From Dehalococcoidia bacterium (GTDB lineage Bacteria > Chloroflexota > Dehalococcoidia > Bin125), in NCBI GenBank assembly GCA_963663895.2, contig CAXXRD010000002.1:704001-768000 (forward strand): 64,000 bases of DNA. Direction: 5' to 3'. The position numbers and the translations under genes were made by a program. Position 1 is the first letter of the stretch; each line of letters starts with the position of its first letter. Below the pieces are notes generated by a model. The model saw only the letters and a program-made list of their open reading frames with translations. It ran no database searches and was not told the origin of the DNA. Shown one piece after another: positions 12,267-18,602 of this stretch.

Positions 12267-14570
12267 CTAAAGGCTTCCGCTGGCGCCAGGACCGGGTTGA
12301 GCGATCTCGGGGGGCTCGCTGCCATCAACTGGGAGATCGCTGACCGGCTCGGGAGGGGCCGTGAAGTCCTCCGGCAACGGGCTGCGCGTGAGACGCTCCT
12401 GCTCGGCCGCCGTGGGTTCGGGATAGCTGATACGCGAGTGGTACACGCCGCGCAGCGTGACCTTGAATGATTCGCCCACGAGCCGCAGATCGCGAAGGGT
12501 CATGTCGCTGTCGTCGAGTTGCCGCTCGGCGAGACGTTCGTTGATCACGCCATCGATCAGGCTGTCGATCTGCTCCGGATCACGGTCGTGGGACGAGCGG
12601 ACCACCGCCTCACAGGAGTCGGCCAGCATGACGATCGCGGTCTCGCGGGAGCGGGGCCGGGGTCCTTCGTAGGTGAAGCCGGTTGGATCGACGTCGGGAT
12701 CGAGCTGCGCGGCCTTCCGGTAAAAGTAGGTGACGAGCCGCGTGCCGTGATGCTCGGGAATGAAGTCCCGCACCCGCTCCGGCAATCGATGCCGGCGGCC
12801 GAGTTCCAGCCCCCAGCGCACGTGTTCCTGGATCACGCGTGCGCTCTCCCACGGGTCGACGCCATCGTGGGGGTTTTCCTCATCGCCCTGATTTTCGATG
12901 TACATGTGCGGCTGTGCGAGCTTGCCGATGTCGTGGTAGTAGGCCCCCACGCGCACGAGCAGCGGATGGGCGTCGATCTGCGCGGCGGCGCGTTCGCCCA
13001 TGGTCGCGACAAGCTGTGAGTGATGAAACGTCCCGGGCGCCTCTTCTTGGAGGCGCCGTAAGAGTGGCTGGGTCAGTTGAGCCATCTCCAGCAGCTGCAG
13101 GCGCGTCGTGACACCGAACGTTGAACCGAGAAAGGTGAACGCACCCACCGTGACGACGCCAGTGACGACCGTGGCGATGAGGGCCGTGAGCGCGAGCCAG
13201 GCAAGGGCGACCGTGGAGCGATCATCGTTGAACAACCAAAAGGCGAGCCCGGTGATGAACACCGTGCCGCCGATGACGCTACCCACCACGGCATACTGCG
13301 TCACCCGCTCCACCCGTGTGCTCGCAAAGACGCCCGCGACGCCGGCGAATAGGAACGTCACCGCCGGCCGCAGCGCTTGCTCCGCGCTCGGCATATTGGT
13401 CACGTCGTAGTCGGGGAACGCCATCGCGGCGAAACCGCCCAGCGCCGCGACGATCGTGGCGACGACGAGGGCCAGCGTGGTTTCCAAAAGCACCGTGGCG
13501 AGCACGGCCACCGCCGCCAGGGGCAGGATTAACTCAAGCGCCTTGTCCTGCTCCTCCGGGAGAACGGCCGGAAAGTACCAGCGCGCGGCGACCGCCGCCA
13601 AAAAGATCAAGGCGCCCAACAGGACGAGCCGGCGGTCGCTGGCCGCGGCGCGCGGGTGCGTGAGGGCGAGGTAGGCGCCGAGTGTCACCGCGCAAGCCGC
13701 CGCGATGATGAGGACGGCGATCAGCTCGTCGCCGGGGACGCCGCCCGAGTCCGGGGTGAGCCGTTCAAGCGCTTCAGTCGCCACCGCGTCGGTCTCGGCC
13801 GCGGTGAAGCTGACGCCGAGGAGGGAAACAGGGAGATCGCAGCGCGCCAAGATGTCCGCCCCGGTCACCTCCACCCCTTGGGGAAAGACGAGCTCTCCCT
13901 CCCTGAAGGAGCAGACCACGGGGGACACGATCGACCGCGCCTGCTCGCGGGCAGCGAGCGTGGCCACGTCATCGATCACGACGTTGGGCATGATCAGCGG
14001 CGCGACCAGTTCGACGACAACCTCACGCACGGCCGGGGCGAGATCGGGATCGACGTGATTGGGGATCTCGGAACGAAGCGTCTCGAGATCGCTCTCGATG
14101 ATGTTCGCCGCGAACGATTCCGTGAGCAGCGTGGTGGCTTCATCGCGAGCCGTCTCCCACTGGGCGTTGGTAAAGCTGAGCACGAGAATCTGCCCGCGGA
14201 GACTGAGCGGTAACCCGGGCACTGCGGCGAGGGCGGCCGTCCGCTCGGCCTCCGTTGCGCTCGATCCGCGGATATCGCTAATGCTCATGAGCAGGGCCTG
14301 CAGCGCGCCCGCTTGCGCGCGCTCCACCCCGCGATCGACTGTGACGAACGCGGCGACATCCTCGCCGGCCGCATCGCGAGCGAGGTCCGTGAGGACGGCG
14401 CTCTCAAAAGCGACATCTTCCCGAGCCCGCACATCGTCCAGGGCGGTCTCCCCGACCTGCGGCAGGGTCTCCGCGGGCTCCATCGGGATCAGCGCGATCG
14501 TGAGTGCGATCGAAAGCCCCACGACGAAAGTCGCGAGACGAACGGGCGTATAGAACTGGTGACGGTCCAT
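12267..14570 (-). CDS. 7TM-HD membrane phosphohydrolase (PgpH-like cyclic-di-AMP phosphodiesterase family)
   Basis: N-terminal TM, extracellular domain, multiple TM helices, APGTFHHS, YYHDIGK, EHHGT, MLADSCEA. Confidence 0.88.
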   Translation of the reverse strand: MDRHQFYTPVRLATFVVGLSIALTIALIPMEPAETLPQVGETALDDVRAREDVAFESAVLTDLARDAAGEDVAAFVTVDRGVERAQAGALQALLMSISDIRGSSATEAERTAALAAVPGLPLSLRGQILVLSFTNAQWETARDEATTLLTESFAANIIESDLETLRSEIPNHVDPDLAPAVREVVVELVAPLIMPNVVIDDVATLAAREQARSIVSPVVCSFREGELVFPQGVEVTGADILARCDLPVSLLGVSFTAAETDAVATEALERLTPDSGGVPGDELIAVLIIAAACAVTLGAYLALTHPRAAASDRRLVLLGALIFLAAVAARWYFPAVLPEEQDKALELILPLAAVAVLATVLLETTLALVVATIVAALGGFAAMAFPDYDVTNMPSAEQALRPAVTFLFAGVAGVFASTRVERVTQYAVVGSVIGGTVFITGLAFWLFNDDRSTVALAWLALTALIATVVTGVVTVGAFTFLGSTFGVTTRLQLLEMAQLTQPLLRRLQEEAPGTFHHSQLVATMGERAAAQIDAHPLLVRVGAYYHDIGKLAQPHMYIENQGDEENPHDGVDPWESARVIQEHVRWGLELGRRHRLPERVRDFIPEHHGTRLVTYFYRKAAQLDPDVDPTGFTYEGPRPRSRETAIVMLADSCEAVVRSSHDRDPEQIDSLIDGVINERLAERQLDDSDMTLRDLRLVGESFKVTLRGVYHSRISYPEPTAAEQERLTRSPLPEDFTAPPEPVSDLPVDGSEPPEIAQPGPGASGSL

Positions 14571-14820
14571 GCGGAGCAGCCCTATAGCGGGCAGTCTATT
14601 GCAGCGATGCCGCGGCCTTTGAACCGCCCGGAAACTCCGGGAGAAAGCGGCGCGCCAGCCAGCCGGCGGCGGAGCCGCGAAGCCCTCTCCCGAGCGACTC
14701 CCAGGCGGCTATCGTCTTTTCGCGCGTGCCCCGAAGCGAGCGGGCAGCCCCTCCATCAGAGCGCTGCGGTGCAGCGCGGCGGCCGGGGCCCGGCGGCCGC
14801 ACGCTCACGGCGAGGCCGGC

Positions 14821-14964
14821 TTAGTCTGCGGAGGGAAGCACCTTTGGCTGCATCAGTTCGAGCGCCCGATCGTCGATCGTCAGTCCACCTTCGCCCGGCT
14901 TGATGCAGAGCACCTCAATGCCGGTCTCTTCGTCCTTGTAGCGCTTGCCCAGCTGCACGGCCAT
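14821..14964 (-). CDS. 47-aa microprotein, desulforedoxin-like paralog lacking the Cys ligands
   Basis: Manual translation MAVQLGKRYKDEETGIEVLCIKPGEGGLTIDDRALELMQPKVLPSAD; GGAGG RBS; not in the ORF track. Confidence 0.75.
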   Translation of the reverse strand: MAVQLGKRYKDEETGIEVLCIKPGEGGLTIDDRALELMQPKVLPSAD

Positions 14965-14997
14965 GCGAACCCTCCGTGATCGGTCAGTGCGTCGCGG

Positions 14998-15120
14998 TTA
15001 CTTTTTTAAGTCCAGGAGCTTCCCGCAGCACTTGAGCTCTGCATCGCCGCCCTTGGTCACGATGAACTCTGCTCCGCAGGCGGAGCAGACGTAGCGCTTC
15101 CCAGTCTGCGCATTCGCCAT
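14998..15120 (-). CDS. 40-aa stand-alone desulforedoxin-like Fe/Zn(Cys)4 protein
   Basis: Manual translation MANAQTGKRYVCSACGAEFIVTKGGDAELKCCGKLLDLKK; YxCxxCG...GG..LxCCG signature; GGAGGT RBS. Confidence 0.85.
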   Translation of the reverse strand: MANAQTGKRYVCSACGAEFIVTKGGDAELKCCGKLLDLKK

Positions 15121-15196
15121 GCAATCGACCTCCGCGTACCAGTCCGAACCAAGTACCTCTACCGCGCGGGGCGGTAGTCGCTCACTTCCGCGCTGC

Positions 15197-16147
15197 TCAT
15201 TCTAGCGTTTGCAGCCAGGCGTAGATGTCGTACACGTCCGCGTTAGGAATCTGGTCCGTCGTGAACTGGGGCATCGCTTCGCGCGGGTTGCGGTACTGGT
15301 ACGCCACCTGCGAAAAGGTGAGTGACGTCCTGGCGATCGTCGGCCCGATTCCGCCCTCGCCCACATCCCCGTGGCAGACGTTGCAGCCATTGCTGAAGAA
15401 GAGCTCCTGACCACGGTCGGCATTGGGGGTAAAGAGGTCGGTAGAGATCTGGGGTACGTCCTCGTCCGCGGGACCTTCGCCGACAGCAGCGGTTGGCTCG
15501 GCTTGAAGCTGCCCGCAGGTTCCCGACGTGACCGAAGGGCTCGGCACCGGGATCGGCAGTCCCGCCGCGAAGCGCTCCTCTGCCGCCGCCAGCGCCTCCT
15601 CCGCAGCGACGATGGCATCGGCGTCGCCACTGGCCTCCGCGGCGCGAAGGGCATCGCGCAAGCCAGCGATCGTCGCCTCGTCCAGCTCGATGGCGAGTTC
15701 ATGCGCCAGGTCCCAAGCGCCGCCAGCGTTCGTCGTGACCAGGCCGACAAGATTGTCGATATGGGAAAAGTTCAGCGCACCGCCCTGCTCGACGGCCCAG
15801 GGCGGCATGGCGGTCCCATTGCGTCCACAGGTGATCGTGTCGTCGATGAACGCCTGGCGCTCAGCGAGCTTGCCATCGTTCCCTTCGCGGAACCCGAAGG
15901 TGTTCTCGGGCGTATTGAGGGCGGGGGCGATGAGGGAGGGATGCTGGGCCCGGCCTAAGCCCTTGTTGCCGTGGCATTCCCGACAGTTGTTCGCGAAGAG
16001 ATGGGCGCCGCGATCCGCCGCGACCAACAGGACTTCCTCTTCGGCCGCTGCCCGGCGGCCGACGTCGAACCAGGTATAGGCGCCGAGGGAGATGACGCCC
16101 ATGAAGAGGAGCACCACCATGGCGATGACTTGCTTGTTGGTGTTCAT
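15197..16147 (-). CDS. membrane-anchored diheme cytochrome c (Rieske/cyt b complex subunit)
   Basis: N-terminal TM; CRECH and CNVCH heme motifs with downstream MP axial Met candidates. Confidence 0.9.
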   Translation of the reverse strand: MNTNKQVIAMVVLLFMGVISLGAYTWFDVGRRAAAEEEVLLVAADRGAHLFANNCRECHGNKGLGRAQHPSLIAPALNTPENTFGFREGNDGKLAERQAFIDDTITCGRNGTAMPPWAVEQGGALNFSHIDNLVGLVTTNAGGAWDLAHELAIELDEATIAGLRDALRAAEASGDADAIVAAEEALAAAEERFAAGLPIPVPSPSVTSGTCGQLQAEPTAAVGEGPADEDVPQISTDLFTPNADRGQELFFSNGCNVCHGDVGEGGIGPTIARTSLTFSQVAYQYRNPREAMPQFTTDQIPNADVYDIYAWLQTLE

Positions 16148-16875
16148 GCGTCGTAGGGCACGGCCCGGGTGGGGTTATCTTCACCACCCGGAGTGATCGA
16201 ACCCGTGTCGACGGTGATGGAGCCGTCCGCATTGACCGTAATGTCCATCGTGTCCATGGGACGCGGCGCCGGGCCGAAGACGCGCACGCCCGCCCGGTTG
16301 TAGGTCGAGCCGTGGCAGGGACAGCGGAACCAGCCGGTAGCGCCCTCGAAGGTGAATGCCTCTCGCCACGGCACCGTACAGCCAAGATGAGGGCAGACCC
16401 AGAAGAGCGCGACCAATCCGCCGCTCCCGGACGTGCCGAACCCGGCGTGGGTGCCCTCGCCCGACTCGAGATTGACGAGCCAGAACTTGCCGTTGGCGAC
16501 GCGCACCGGGTTGTCCCCGGGGCGGGGGACAAGGTCGGCGGAAACGGGAACTTCGCCACCGAAGCCCTGCAAGCCCCGTGGCCAGAAGAACGACAGGAAA
16601 GCGGCCAGGCTTCCGGTCAGGCCGATACCCATCGCGCCCCAAAAGGCCGCACCGAAGAAACGCCGCCGGGACAGCTCGGCGCGGCGCGCGCGGCGCGCCT
16701 GCTCTTGCCGCACGATGGCGCGCTCCGGCGCCGGGCGCTCGATGACCCCGATCTCCCGCTCCGAAGGCGCGGCGCGCGCCGTCCGCTGCGGGCGGCTACC
16801 GCCCGACGGCTCACCGCCCCCGCGATCAACAACAGGGGGACCGCCCTCGCCCAAGCCGCTTCTATCGCTTCCCAT
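16144..16875 (-). CDS. Rieske iron-sulfur subunit (PetC/QcrA-like)
   Basis: Tat-like SRRRFF plus TM; CPHLGC and CPCHGS boxes; GPAPRP. Confidence 0.95.
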   Translation of the reverse strand: MGSDRSGLGEGGPPVVDRGGGEPSGGSRPQRTARAAPSEREIGVIERPAPERAIVRQEQARRARRAELSRRRFFGAAFWGAMGIGLTGSLAAFLSFFWPRGLQGFGGEVPVSADLVPRPGDNPVRVANGKFWLVNLESGEGTHAGFGTSGSGGLVALFWVCPHLGCTVPWREAFTFEGATGWFRCPCHGSTYNRAGVRVFGPAPRPMDTMDITVNADGSITVDTGSITPGGEDNPTRAVPYDA

Positions 16876-16893
16876 AGCCGCTCTCGCCTCGCC

Positions 16894-17796
16894 CTATTCC
16901 TCTACCACCACGATATCCCACGGCGCCCGCAGCTCTTGCGCCTCGCCGCGGAAGAACTGGCCCACGGCGGTCAGCACGATGTAGGTCGCGATGAATCCGC
17001 TAAAGATCAGGATCGCCGTATCGCGGCGCGAGTAGATCCAGCCCAACTTATGCCGGGTGAACAGGTACAGCAGAACGGGCAACCCAATCATCGTCGCCAC
17101 CGGCACCAACTGCTGGGAGAGGAACGAGGGGAAGTTCAGGTTCAATAACCACGGGTCTTCCGTGGTGCCGGGAATACCCAGCGGGATGGCGCGCCAATCC
17201 TGGAACATCTTGAAGTCACCGATGGTGAAGCTCAGATCGTCCCAGTTGATCCGCGTGTCGAGCGAGCGGAGATCGCGAGCCCAATCGAGGCCGCCGGGCC
17301 AGGTGAAATCCCTGTTGAGCCCGAGGCCCCGGATGATGTTCTCGGTCCACTCCACGTGCTTCTGTCCGTCATAGATGATCAGCCAGATCGATCCGAAAAG
17401 CCCAACGCCCATCCCCCAGATCGTGAGCCGCACCGAGTTGGCGGTCCCGAACCAGACGCCCTGTTGTTCGTTGGAGCGGTCCCAATAGGGGACGGCCGCG
17501 AGCACGATCAGGAAGATCGTCGGAACGATGACGCCCGCCCACGCGGGCTCCATGTGCAGCAGCAGCTCCTGCAGGTTGAGGAAGTACCAGGGGGCCTTCG
17601 ACGGGTTGGGCGTGGTGTCGGGATCGGCGCGATTCAGCAGGGGCGCGTTGATGAAGACGGAGAGGACGACGAGGGAGACCGTGAAGAGCACCGCCGAGAT
17701 GAACTCGACGAAAACGAGATCCGGCCAGACGAGGACCTCTTCTTCGCGCTCCCGCCGGGGCCGGCGCTGCAGCGCGGCAACTACCCGCTCAGCCAT
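16894..17796 (-). CDS. cytochrome b subunit IV (PetD-like) with extra helices
   Basis: VWPDLV..E, ADPDTTPNPSKAPWYF (PEWY-equivalent), PYWDR. Confidence 0.85.
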   Translation of the reverse strand: MAERVVAALQRRPRREREEEVLVWPDLVFVEFISAVLFTVSLVVLSVFINAPLLNRADPDTTPNPSKAPWYFLNLQELLLHMEPAWAGVIVPTIFLIVLAAVPYWDRSNEQQGVWFGTANSVRLTIWGMGVGLFGSIWLIIYDGQKHVEWTENIIRGLGLNRDFTWPGGLDWARDLRSLDTRINWDDLSFTIGDFKMFQDWRAIPLGIPGTTEDPWLLNLNFPSFLSQQLVPVATMIGLPVLLYLFTRHKLGWIYSRRDTAILIFSGFIATYIVLTAVGQFFRGEAQELRAPWDIVVVEE

Positions 17797-17846
17797 GACT
17801 CTCCCGCACTCATCCCGTCCATGCTCTCAAGCCTGCCCTGCCGCCG

Positions 17847-18602
17847 TCAGAGCGGCCGGGCCAGCCCGCCATCGCGACGCACTCGCCAGAAGTGCACCGC
17901 CATAAAGATCGCCGCCAACAGCGGCAGCGCGATCACATGCAGGGTATAGAAGCGAATCAGCGCGTTCGGCCCCACCGAGAAACCGCCCAGGAGGAGGAAC
18001 TTACTCTCGTCGCCCAGGATGGGAGCGGAGCCGACCATCGTCGTGCCCACGGTGATGGCCCAGAAGGCGAGCTGATCCCACGGCAGCAGATAGCCAGTGA
18101 AGGAAAGTAGGAGCGTCAGAATGAAGAGGACGACCCCGATGACCCAGTTGAACTCGCGCGGCGGCTTATAGGCACCGGTGTAAAAGACCCGCATCATGTG
18201 GAGCAGCACGGTGATGATCATCGCGTGCGCCATCCAGCGATGGAGGTTGCGCATGAGCGAACCGAACCGCACGTTCGTCTCGAGCGCTTGGATGTCCGCA
18301 TAGGCGCGCTCGACGGACGGCACGTAGTAGAACATCAGCAGCACGCCGGTCACCGTGAGCCCTAGGAACATGAAGAAGGTCAAGCCGCCCAAACAGTACG
18401 TGTGCGTGATCTTAACGTGGGTGCGGTGGATCCGCGTCGGGTGCAGGTGCAGAAACACGTTGGTCGCCACGACCAGCATCTGGTTACGCGGCGTGTTCGG
18501 GTAGCCGCTGCGGAAGACCGACTTCCAGATGTAGTTATTGAAGAGGAGGTCGTAGAGCTGCTCGTTGAAGCCCCGTGCCGGCGGACGCTCCGCAGTTGCC
18601 AT
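17847..18602 (-). CDS. cytochrome b6-like N-terminal cytochrome b (PetB/QcrB)
   Basis: [36 protein letters not shown]. Confidence 0.95.

Follow-up and report, generated by a model that had tools for sequence, protein, structure and literature searches.

Our analyses show that two very short genes, ORF1 and ORF2, in a 64,000-nucleotide stretch of DNA from a Dehalococcoidia bacterium (the window) are real, paralogous and under purifying selection, that their counterparts are fused in relatives and that their metal-ligand positions are degenerate. The role of the pair is best explained, with a probability that we put at roughly 0.45, by a heterodimeric mini-protein of the desulforedoxin fold that, whether split or fused, serves as an accessory partner of acyl-CoA-forming enzymes. 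The genes and their start signals, the latter read from the sequence, are located as follows:

14821..14964, minus strand: ORF2, 47 aa plus stop, MAVQLGKRYKDEETGIEVLCIKPGEGGLTIDDRALELMQPKVLPSAD; the tail-bearing paralog
14971..14975, minus strand: ribosome-binding site GGAGG(G) of ORF2, 5 nt before its ATG
14998..15120, minus strand: ORF1, 40 aa plus stop, MANAQTGKRYVCSACGAEFIVTKGGDAELKCCGKLLDLKK; the desulforedoxin-type half, with the full C-x2-C-x15-C-C set
15129..15133, minus strand: ribosome-binding site GGAGG of ORF1, 8 nt before its ATG
15197..16147, co-oriented with ORF1 and ORF2: gene of a dihaem cytochrome c

The cytochrome c gene is separated from ORF1 by 76 nt, ORF1 from ORF2 by 33 nt and ORF2 from the next gene by 250 nt, and the neighbours of the pair in the window are the dihaem cytochrome c and a 7TM-HD protein. 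A preliminary description of the window had read the two as co-oriented mini-genes behind the cytochrome c, each with its own GGAGG, and both the ORF listing and the sequence bear this out; the GGAGG string upstream of ORF1 is also present in genomes G001 and G002. Consensus scans of positions 14400-15500 gave neither a sigma-70-like promoter nor an intrinsic terminator, and Rfam returned a chance snoRNA match alone (E 0.22). Two marine metatranscriptome contigs carry the window sequence at 15009-15153 and 15010-15161 (X1 and X2) and cover ORF1; they are of read length and tell that the sequence is present in RNA libraries, but nothing about the ends or levels of transcripts, the parts that the libraries leave uncovered carry no meaning, and a further match (X3) consists of fragments from relatives.

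ORF1 has all four ligand cysteines (C12, C15, C31 and C32), in a spacing identical to that of desulforedoxin, and matches the Pfam family PF06397 (Desulfoferrod_N) at 28.4 bits, above the gathering cut-off of 23 (E 1.3e-6), while its matches in NCBIfam were sub-threshold at most; its early reading as a stand-alone desulforedoxin-type protein thus stands. The spacing is not found in ORF2, where D11, T14, I30 and D31 occupy the four ligand positions and the sole cysteine is Cys20, and ORF2 alone matched no Pfam or NCBIfam family. Since the Cys4 set is lacking from its sequence, ORF2 should not be filed as a metal-binding desulforedoxin. BLASTP of ORF1 against ORF2 gave no match, and profiles were therefore required to reveal the relation between the two: compared with hhalign, the ortholog-group profiles match with a probability of 99.5% (E 3.8e-22) over 39 columns without a single gap, so that the preliminary description was right about the ligand-less paralog, its gapless alignment and its cysteine at another place. 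Searched against the PDB, the ORF2 profile (alignment A2) found the desulfoferrodoxin N-domains 2ji1 and 1vzg at E 2.6e-5 and the desulforedoxin 1cfw at E 0.007.

Conserved homologs and purifying selection, which had been set as a test of the proposed pair, were both found. Of 61 related genomes, Dehalococcoidia according to the named matches, 57 have an ORF2 ortholog at E <= 10 (56 of them below 1e-4) and 58 one of ORF1, always in tandem, which puts the tandem pair in 56-57 genomes and goes far beyond chance; the claimed adjacency in relatives likewise held, with a tandem in almost every genome holding the pair. The median dN/dS (190 pairs, 20 genomes of the family) is 0.171 for ORF1 and 0.086 for ORF2, and we reject the idea that ORF2 is a decaying pseudogene because its value is even lower than that of ORF1. 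Across the other 36 genomes of the window's family, f1, ORF2 is 77-96% identical to the window's copy; outside the window's own genus, the corresponding f1 identities are about 47-57% for the cytochrome c and 28-38% for the HD protein.

The ORF2-type half ends, at the very C-terminus, in a tail with the consensus P-x-x-[LIV]-P-S-[SA]-D, to which the QPKVLPSAD of the window conforms. All 22 rows of alignment A2 have P44, S45 and D47 of the tail, and all 30 fused forms of alignment A4 have P101 and D104. Cys20 of the ORF2-type half is conserved and lies outside the ligand set, and a basic G-K-R-[YF] motif, in the place of the G-D-V-Y of desulforedoxin, is near-invariant in the family. The order ORF1 then ORF2 is kept in all Dehalococcoidia loci read, and the tandem pair also occurs in Desulfobacterota and Acidobacteriota. 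Of 80 named loci from Chloroflexota, Desulfobacterota and Acidobacteriota, 74 have, by our reading, an ORF1-type gene immediately before ORF2, and one of the other six is situated at a contig start; these loci were drawn with the narrower alignment A3 and are thus biased to one subfamily, and the relatives among them are not independent.

Natural fusions of ORF1 and ORF2 are numerous, and the A2 profile recovers the fused proteins at E 1e-15 to 1e-25. A Cys-poor fused form of about 101 aa, which comprises over 7000 clusters and has no Pfam family, occurs in Actinomycetota and Pseudomonadota; this 'hypothetical protein' of some 101-102 aa is present in Acidimicrobiia, Rhodococcus, Mycobacterium, Streptomyces, Sphingomonadaceae and Burkholderiales. 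Its C-terminal half matches ORF2 of the window (LGKRY-D-x3-G-x-E-[VL]-L-C-x-K-x-G-x-G-x-L ... K-x-L-P-S-S-D), and its N-terminal half is a degenerate ORF1 in which, unlike the four of ORF1, 1-2 cysteines are left, with Cys34 invariant in 30 of 30; unlike the window pair, the protein is one polypeptide, with a linker of 20-25 residues. The fused relatives have 0-3 cysteines, and the family as a whole has members in no fewer than five phyla (Chloroflexota, Desulfobacterota, Acidobacteriota, Actinomycetota and Pseudomonadota). No fusion to an enzyme and no protein above 188 aa appeared among the best 120 of 551 longer matches, and the ESM Atlas gave unnamed 'hypothetical protein' clusters only. 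The preliminary description knew of no such system, and our literature search, which found no paper on the tailed pair or the fused family, agrees.

The fold proposed for the pair is the all-beta fold, of about 36 residues, of desulforedoxin (Desulfovibrio gigas Dx, 1dxg/1cfw) and of the desulfoferrodoxin N-domain (2ji1, 1vzg). The AlphaFold model of a natural fusion, P0066, whose C-terminal half is 78% identical to ORF2, has a pLDDT of 93.4 and a pTM of 0.82; its residues 56-91, which are Cys-less, superpose on 1cfw_A over 36 of 36 residues with an rmsd of 0.8 A and a Z of 3.9, in this model of a relative. Foldseek placed 1dxg_A on P0066 with an rmsd of 0.8 and a target TM of 0.92, at an E of 2.4 that is explained by the tiny size of the domain. 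With the fused model as a whole, a Foldseek search of the PDB had no match at E <= 0.001 and a wide VIA-align search none above Z 3.9, so that the double domain is without a solved look-alike in these searches. Dx is a homodimer, and the window's family has two paralogous halves: unlike in desulforedoxin, the subunits are different, the ORF2-type half adds the conserved Cys20 and an invariant nine-residue tail, and the ORF2 of the window has none of the four ligands. Complex prediction for ORF1 and ORF2, Fe included, reached 0.40 against 0.16 for the best control, which the tool rates as 'weak support'; 116 of 157 solved complexes and 2 of 215 mismatched pairs attain that mark, and the runs agree in at least 93% of contacts, with a partner pLDDT of at least 69. 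Regarding the heterodimer with one metal site that had been proposed, the tandem arrangement, the fusions, a co-variation between the halves and the predicted complex suggest that ORF1 and ORF2 probably act together; of the proposal's second part, the single metal site, we would say only that such a dimer is plausible.

The ancestral state is four cysteines in both halves, and most members in anaerobes have eight per pair. Across f1, all four ligands of ORF2 are lost. In the family, the fourth ligand varies between C, H, D and G. The fourth cysteine of ORF1 (Cys32) and residue 26 of ORF2 co-vary without exception in 38 loci: a 'CC' in ORF1 is paired with Gly26 in 4 genomes and a 'CG' with Cys26 in 33 genomes (34 loci), Gly being the residue at position 26 in nearly all other members read. 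As g1 and g10 form a single clade (SH-aLRT 97), this co-variation represents one or two evolutionary events only. A far-reaching reading, which we consider doubtful, would make the pair an asymmetric desulforedoxin heterodimer with an inter-subunit metal site, in which Cys26 of ORF2 completes the site of ORF1 in trans where the fourth cysteine of ORF1 is lost (33 of 37 family genomes) and the ligand has returned to ORF1 in the clade of the window; all members of the family, split or fused and with or without metal, would then form a hitherto unrecognised class of tail-docking helper subunits of acyl-CoA ligases, MbtH-like in principle, acting in CoA-dependent catabolism in at least five phyla and thousands of clusters. 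Because ORF2 lost all four ligands yet apparently kept the fold, the metal appears to be structural and dispensable rather than the seat of the conserved function. The window can be seen as a natural experiment where the ligand-free half is the more strongly conserved one and the function of fold and tail would thereby be separated from metal redox chemistry, and the split and fused forms, with the apparent migration of a ligand, may provide a compact model for the transition from a homodimer to an asymmetric heterodimer.

In the mechanism that we favour, ORF1 and ORF2 would together make up a heterodimeric mini-protein of the desulforedoxin fold, one half each; in the family, the two halves are encoded by tandem genes (about 39 + 47 aa) or joined in a single chain of about 100 aa. 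The ORF1-type half would retain the Cys-based metal site, the ORF2-type half would bear what seems to be the family's most invariant feature, the C-terminal tail ending in P-S-[SA]-D, and the dimer would act as a small accessory partner for enzymes that make acyl-CoA thioesters. The main candidate for the partner is one clade of class I adenylate-forming acyl-CoA ligases, which the dimer may bind by docking through the tail, as an MbtH-type helper rather than an electron carrier. Of 98 loci with a tailed ORF, 23 have an AMP-binding gene as the immediate upstream neighbour on the same strand, 10 a CoA_trans gene directly upstream and 18 a CoA_transf_3 gene directly downstream; their union, 42 of the 98 loci, makes adjacency to a CoA enzyme frequent, not defining. 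The fused gene abuts a class I ligase gene in all seven plasmid contexts examined (three of Rhodococcus and one each of Sphingomonas, Sphingobium, Mycobacterium and Streptomyces), with gaps of 10-60 bp to the adenylate-forming enzyme gene, whereas the split pair of the window does not. In G043, five of the eight pair loci abut a class I ligase, and six of seven ligase paralogs are on contigs that also hold a pair. When the 61 genomes are compared, 49 have both the pair and a ligase ortholog, 4 have neither, one has the ligase alone and 7 (G017, G044, G046, G047 (split), G049, G052 and G057) have the pair without a ligase ortholog at E <= 1e-100. The window pair has no CoA-enzyme neighbour, the ligase ortholog of its genome being on another contig (G000:C1:835489-837024), and ligase adjacency is not universal, as in many Dehalococcoidia families the pair is found among housekeeping genes (NusA/IF2, LexA, RuvC, GreA, asd). 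Since the neighbour enzymes come from three unrelated families, AMP-binding, CoA_trans and CoA_transf_3, a pathway link fits better than one fixed protein partner.

Two smaller points concern the same neighbourhoods and genomes. The idea of a RiPP precursor was rejected because no maturase neighbour recurs. The three complete genomes that have neither the pair nor the ligase are small (1.5-1.9 Mb), and general gene loss could explain the co-absence.

The preliminary description had tied the pair to the Rieske/cytochrome b complex, as a cytoplasmic electron carrier, redox sensor or metal chaperone for it and the dihaem cytochrome c, and this we now regard as highly improbable. In every f1 locus with a flank long enough, the pair does follow the bc operon directly, in G037, G042, G046 and G051 the two are at most about 1 kb apart, and ORF1 retains the full Cys4 site; however, the operon is beside the pair in just 5 of the 19 pair-bearing families (f1, f2, f7, f11 and f16) and absent from the fetched flanks in 14, the flanks of G040, G045, G047, G052 and G053 being shortened by contig ends. 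Moreover, the family is also present in CoA-metabolism clusters of Desulfobacterota, Acidobacteriota, Actinomycetota and Pseudomonadota, and the two RNA contigs of ORF1 stop short of the cytochrome c, although such contigs cannot show transcript ends; the placement behind the Rieske/cytochrome b operon would be lineage-specific synteny. Electron carriage as a general function of the family is hard to keep, as thousands of relatives without the full Cys4 set keep the fold motifs and the tail. We also think it very unlikely that the pair is a free-standing Fe(Cys)4 redox protein whose electrons might go to enzymes of oxidative stress or to acyl-CoA dehydrogenase or oxygenase systems encoded in the same clusters: the spacing and the PF06397 match of ORF1, the eight cysteines retained by most anaerobe pairs and the ferredoxin genes near 3 of the 7 plasmid clusters would suit it, but the ligands were lost repeatedly under strong purifying selection, the fourth is variable, and G054 has a canonical single desulforedoxin, without tail or partner, in a cluster of peroxiredoxin, rubrerythrin, catalase and SOD genes. 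With that copy tailless, partnerless and in an oxidative-stress cluster, the classical desulforedoxin type is distinct from the family, the context of which is CoA metabolism or housekeeping, unlike the sulfate-reducer redox and oxidative-stress genes around desulforedoxin.

Two further readings start from the size and the distribution of the protein. The amino-group carrier LysW consists of a zinc-ribbon globule and an acidic C-terminal tail, E-D-W-G-E where the family has P-S-S-D, and by analogy the small protein could be a carrier or scaffold on which the adjacent adenylate-forming enzyme loads an acyl or other group, at the Asp or Ser of the tail or at Cys20. As a comparison of mechanism only, the likeness would lie in the tiny metal-ribbon globule and, behind it, the short invariant tail with its acidic end, and the difference in the partner, an adenylate-forming enzyme and not an ATP-grasp ligase. 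While the invariant tail residues, the conserved Cys20 and the tight packing against the enzyme genes speak for a carrier, we find the idea rather unlikely, given that the clusters resemble those of beta-oxidation-type catabolism and contain ordinary CoA enzymes (crotonases, acyl-CoA dehydrogenases and thiolases), for which free CoA esters are needed, that no modifying enzyme is consistently near and that Zn_ribbon_LysW was touched by 1 of 30 fused members only, sub-threshold at E 0.075. Somewhat less remote, if still unlikely, is a general housekeeping factor, such as a nucleic-acid- or ribosome-associated mini-protein, with the CoA-enzyme neighbourhood being incidental. The pair is nearly universal and mostly single-copy in Dehalococcoidia, has as neighbours NusA/IF2 (2 loci), LexA (2), RuvABC, GreA and the ribosomal proteins S20 and L25 in several families, and carries the basic G-K-R-[YF] motif; ribosomal zinc-ribbon proteins, too, have lost ligands with the fold kept. 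On the other hand, no neighbour recurs across the housekeeping loci, neither the multi-copy expansion with ligase paralogs in G043 nor the locations in plasmid catabolic clusters would be expected of such a factor, and the uS9 matches obtained from the PDB, weak ones with the ORF2 profile (E 0.12 and above) and the only rows with the fused-family profile, were not significant.

To return to the ligase helper, the comparison with MbtH-like proteins is one of mode of action, not of membership, and the resemblance is one of context alone. Like them, the protein is small (under 110 aa) and presumably non-catalytic, its gene may stand beside those of class I adenylate-forming enzymes, and it is sometimes single-copy and sometimes multiplied with its partners. 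Unlike them, it has no relation in sequence or fold to MbtH, and its partners would be the CoA ligases that catabolic clusters encode instead of NRPS adenylation domains; PF03621, which we take to be the accession of the MbtH-like family, gave no match for ORF1 or ORF2 at E <= 10 and is not one of the 13 families to which the 30 fused members gave any match. Genes of the family stand within or close to clusters for the activation of organic acids to CoA esters, including those on the catabolic megaplasmids of Rhodococcus and sphingomonads. If its members do assist acyl-CoA ligases, many of these enzymes may not behave properly on expression without them, and pathway reconstructions would miss a component. 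The thousands of members are annotated as 'hypothetical protein' or, wrongly, as 'desulfoferrodoxin'.

The two mini-genes lie on the reverse strand where the preliminary description had placed them, behind the gene for a dihaem cytochrome c and each preceded by GGAGG, as the ORF listing and the sequence both confirm. The local features of the window are as follows.

12267-14570, reverse strand: 7TM receptor with intracellular HD hydrolase (PgpH-like), 767 aa
14821-14964, reverse strand: ORF2, the tailed paralog, 47 aa
14971-14975, reverse strand: GGAGG before the ORF2 start codon
14998-15120, reverse strand: ORF1, the desulforedoxin-type mini-protein, 40 aa
15129-15133, reverse strand: GGAGG before the ORF1 start codon
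15197-16147, reverse strand: dihaem cytochrome c, 316 aa, last gene of the Rieske/cytochrome b (bc) run
16144-16875, reverse strand: Rieske protein
16894-17796, reverse strand: cytochrome b C-part/PetD-like protein, 300 aa
17847-18602, reverse strand: cytochrome b N-part, 251 aa

The gap between the cytochrome c gene and ORF1 is 76 nt, the 7TM-HD gene follows 250 nt downstream of the pair, and purine-synthesis genes stand on both sides of the whole block of bc genes, pair and 7TM-HD gene. The respiratory operon with its split cytochrome b (15197-18602, reverse strand) is located between purM/purF and purQ/purL; the 7TM-HD gene is a conserved downstream neighbour of the pair in the window's family of related genomes (f1) and occurs 2-4.5 kb downstream in four other families. 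No Rfam family matched the G+C-rich 250-nt spacer (14571-14820). In RNA data, each of two marine metatranscriptome runs of a single study yielded one contig of read length that matches the window exactly over ORF1 (15009-15153 and 15010-15161), and a sponge metatranscriptome contains a relative 90-95% identical over ORF2; such contigs attest presence in RNA libraries, not transcript structure.

ORF1 is of the desulforedoxin type with the full signature, as had been proposed: it passes Pfam Desulfoferrod_N (28.4 bits against a gathering score of 23) and its ligands are spaced C-x2-C-x15-C-C. No Pfam or NCBIfam model matched ORF2, and BLASTP detected no likeness between the two. Comparison of the family profiles, however, aligned 39 columns without a gap (hhalign, 99.5%, E 3.8e-22), and ORF2 is therefore a paralog of ORF1, with D, T/S, a hydrophobic residue and D/E/G at the four ligand positions in f1 and the remainder almost frozen, in agreement with its first description as ligand-less. 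Against solved structures, the ORF2 profile matched the desulfoferrodoxin N-domains 2ji1 and 1vzg (E 2.6e-5) and desulforedoxin 1cfw (E 0.007). Orthologs were also read in further families of the class (Dehalococcoidia, a name taken from the named matches): their ORF1-type consensus is MANQxGKRYxCxKCGSEFIVTKGGxGxLxCCGQPMELKK and the ORF2-type consensus MANQLGKRFxCExCGTEVLCTKAGEGxVxCCxKEMELQQPKxLPSSD; both carry four Cys, and ORF2-type proteins have an additional fifth within 'VLC'. These orthologs show the ancestral state, with four Cys in both halves.

The survey of relatives covered 61 genomes, the window's among them, and at E <= 10 matched ORF2 in 57 and ORF1 in 58; one ORF2 match (G048, E 0.07) is due to chance, leaving 56 real ones. 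The tandem order is constant in these relatives, at a spacing of a few dozen to about 200 nt. Within f1 (37 genomes), ORF2 is 77-100% identical to that of the window; outside the window's own genus, the neighbouring cytochrome c is about 47-57% and the HD protein 28-38% identical. Purifying selection is present on both genes, with a median dN/dS of 0.171 for ORF1 and 0.086 for ORF2 (Nei-Gojobori, 190 pairs from 20 f1 genomes). The two are thus real paralogous genes, conserved together, whose products probably share the desulforedoxin fold; one half has, to judge by its residues, become metal-free in this lineage while staying under the stronger constraint. The most conserved element of the family is the C-terminal tail (P-x-x-[LIV]-P-S-[SA]-D), not the metal site: all 22 aligned ORF2-type rows have P44, S45 and D47. 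A single case among the 38 f1 loci, L024 (G003:C5, 1314-1451, reverse strand), reads …MQPMVLPSAY with no stop after the tail and continues to 98 aa, owing perhaps to a sequencing error, perhaps to genuine loss of the terminal Asp. In one genome the pair is found twice, in identical copies on separate contigs (L134 and L135, on G009:C1 and G009:C9); with its contamination estimate of 8%, these may represent a duplication or a mixed bin.

The ligands themselves were compared across f1, whose 37 genomes contain 38 loci of the pair. ORF1 has just three Cys (CxxC...CG) in 33 of these genomes (34 loci), and there ORF2 has gained a Cys at position 26 (PGECDL); the remaining four, which belong to genera g1 (the window's) and g10, combine CC in ORF1 with Gly at position 26 in ORF2. 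The pairing is without exception in the 38 loci. Position 26 is Gly in 30 of 30 aligned fused relatives and in 15 of 16 aligned four-Cys ORF2 rows; outside f1, the fourth ligand position is C, H, D or G. The pattern suggests that Cys26 of ORF2 may complete the ORF1 site across a subunit interface. As g1 and g10 form one clade in the tree of the single-copy ligase ortholog (SH-aLRT 97), the Cys32/Cys26 pattern represents one or two evolutionary events rather than 38.

The tandem order is common to three phyla, and in most of 80 named loci (Chloroflexota, Desulfobacterota/'Deltaproteobacteria', Acidobacteriota) an ORF1-type gene stands just upstream of ORF2. Both protein searches returned many natural ORF1-linker-ORF2 fusions (80-110 aa) among their best matches. 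One of them, P0066 (100 aa), shares 78% identity with the window's ORF2 over its C-half; the predicted structure of P0066 (60-row alignment; pLDDT 93.4, about 82 in the tail; pTM 0.82) is all-beta with two repeated halves. Residues 56-91 of this model, the Cys-less half, can be superposed in full (36 of 36 residues) on desulforedoxin 1cfw_A at 0.8 A (Z 3.9), and Foldseek returned 1dxg_A (rmsd 0.8, target TM 0.92), the significance of these matches being low because the domain is small. Prediction of a complex of ORF1, ORF2 and Fe gave 0.40 against 0.16 for the best control, rated by the tool as a weak pass, a mark that 116 of the 157 solved complexes attained, as did 2 of the 215 mismatched pairs, though part of the score may reflect likeness to a solved structure as desulforedoxin is a solved homodimer; contact agreement between runs was at least 93% and partner pLDDT at least 69. 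We infer that in this lineage ORF1 and ORF2 would form a heterodimer with one metal site, the metal probably being structural.

The preliminary description tied the pair to the Rieske/cytochrome b complex, and a bc operon does adjoin it in five of the 19 pair-bearing families examined (f1, f2, f7, f11, f16). The remaining 14 families showed no bc operon in their flanks, some of which are shortened by contig ends, and the neighbours there are varied and largely housekeeping (NusA/IF2, LexA, RuvABC, GreA, asd); the tie is thus not borne out, and service to this complex is unlikely because the synteny is confined to a subclade. Clustering of neighbours at 100 loci, 98 of them with a tailed ORF, revealed recurrent co-oriented genes: an Acs-like AMP-binding enzyme directly upstream in 23 of the 98, CoA_trans subunits directly upstream in 10 and a family III CoA-transferase directly downstream in 18, at least one of the three being found at 42, with Amidohydro_2 genes further upstream. 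A tblastn search of plasmids, with a fused member as query, found 19 records (Rhodococcus 12, Streptomyces 3, Sphingobium/Sphingomonas 3, Mycobacterium 1); in all seven examined, a class I adenylate-forming (acyl-CoA ligase) gene abuts the fused gene on the same strand, at gaps of about 10-60 bp, and in four the fused gene also adjoins a CoA-transferase gene. G043, a genome of 5.6 Mb from the same class as the window, has about eight pairs; five of eight pair loci abut such a ligase and six of seven ligase paralogs are on contigs also holding a pair. Across phyla, the pair and the fused genes travel with enzymes forming acyl-CoA esters. The window's genome has one ortholog of the G043 ligase (45% identity, E 2.6e-144), on another contig.

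Co-occurrence points the same way, but is suggestive only, as reduced genomes lose many genes together. With orthologs called at E <= 1e-100, pair and ligase occur together in 49 of the 61 genomes and are both absent from four, three of which are 97-100% complete at 1.5-1.9 Mb; seven have the pair without the ligase (one with a split ligase, two under 80% complete) and one, 69% complete, the ligase without the pair. By family, the ligase is found in 15 of 20 pair-bearing and one of five pair-less families. We propose that the dimer may dock by its tail on the ligase or transferase as a helper; the closest analogy in mode of action would be the MbtH-like helpers of adenylation domains, a family to which these proteins do not belong. 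A LysW-like carrier role for the pair or fused protein is a weaker alternative.

The wider family is large. In a set of 1.84 billion proteins, the ORF2 profile matched 1324 representatives (E <= 0.001), many of them two-domain and about 100 aa long, and a profile of 30 fused proteins matched at least 7044 clusters, none with a Pfam domain. Named fused members are each a 'hypothetical protein' (Acidimicrobiia/Acidimicrobiales, Burkholderiales, Phenylobacterium), with one further member in Nocardia. Sequence searches with the fused family returned neither a Pfam model nor a solved structure, the ESM Atlas returned unnamed clusters only, and a full-text search of literature outside subscription journals gave nothing on the family, bringing up just two unrelated papers on Clostridioides difficile. 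The fused N-half has one invariant and often a second Cys; the C-half reads LGKRY-D-xxx-G-x-E-V-L-C-T-K-x-G-x-G-x-L ... K-P-L-P-S-S-D, and since it shares the Cys-less pattern of the window's ORF2, the latter is no oddity but a split form of the family's commonest state. What the window contributes is a fully ligand-less split ORF2, the Cys32/Cys26 exchange and a lineage in which the pair is unlinked from CoA enzymes.

Several arrangements were seen besides these. In anaerobes of two phyla, a recurrent order runs Amidohydro_2 (often crotonase-fused), Amidohydro_2, Acs-like AMP-binding enzyme, ORF1, ORF2, family III CoA-transferase (L046, L048, L064, L068, L055, L071, L072, L093, L099, L104 and others), often with an Amidohydro_3 gene beyond it on the opposite strand. 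A second synteny class, in Dehalococcoidales, has carB, a PyrK-like Fe-S protein and UPF0047 (sometimes FMN reductase-fused) upstream of the pair and a convergent GTP cyclohydrolase I 3-13 nt after ORF2 (L051, L062, L066, L074, L077, L079, L100, L102, L103, L105). In a third protein architecture, a four-Cys ORF2-type domain, complete with tail, is preceded by an unrelated domain about 60 residues long (…P-x-G-F-[RK]-W…) (P0172, P0183, P0192, P0199, P0200, P0222, P0229, P0238, P0241, P0264), one member being named as Candidatus Nealsonbacteria. Finally, a genome without the tailed pair encodes a single canonical, tail-less desulforedoxin (L044; G054:C20, 627-746, forward strand), which heads a cluster of peroxiredoxin, rubrerythrin, flavodoxin, flavin reductase, catalase and Fe/Mn superoxide dismutase.
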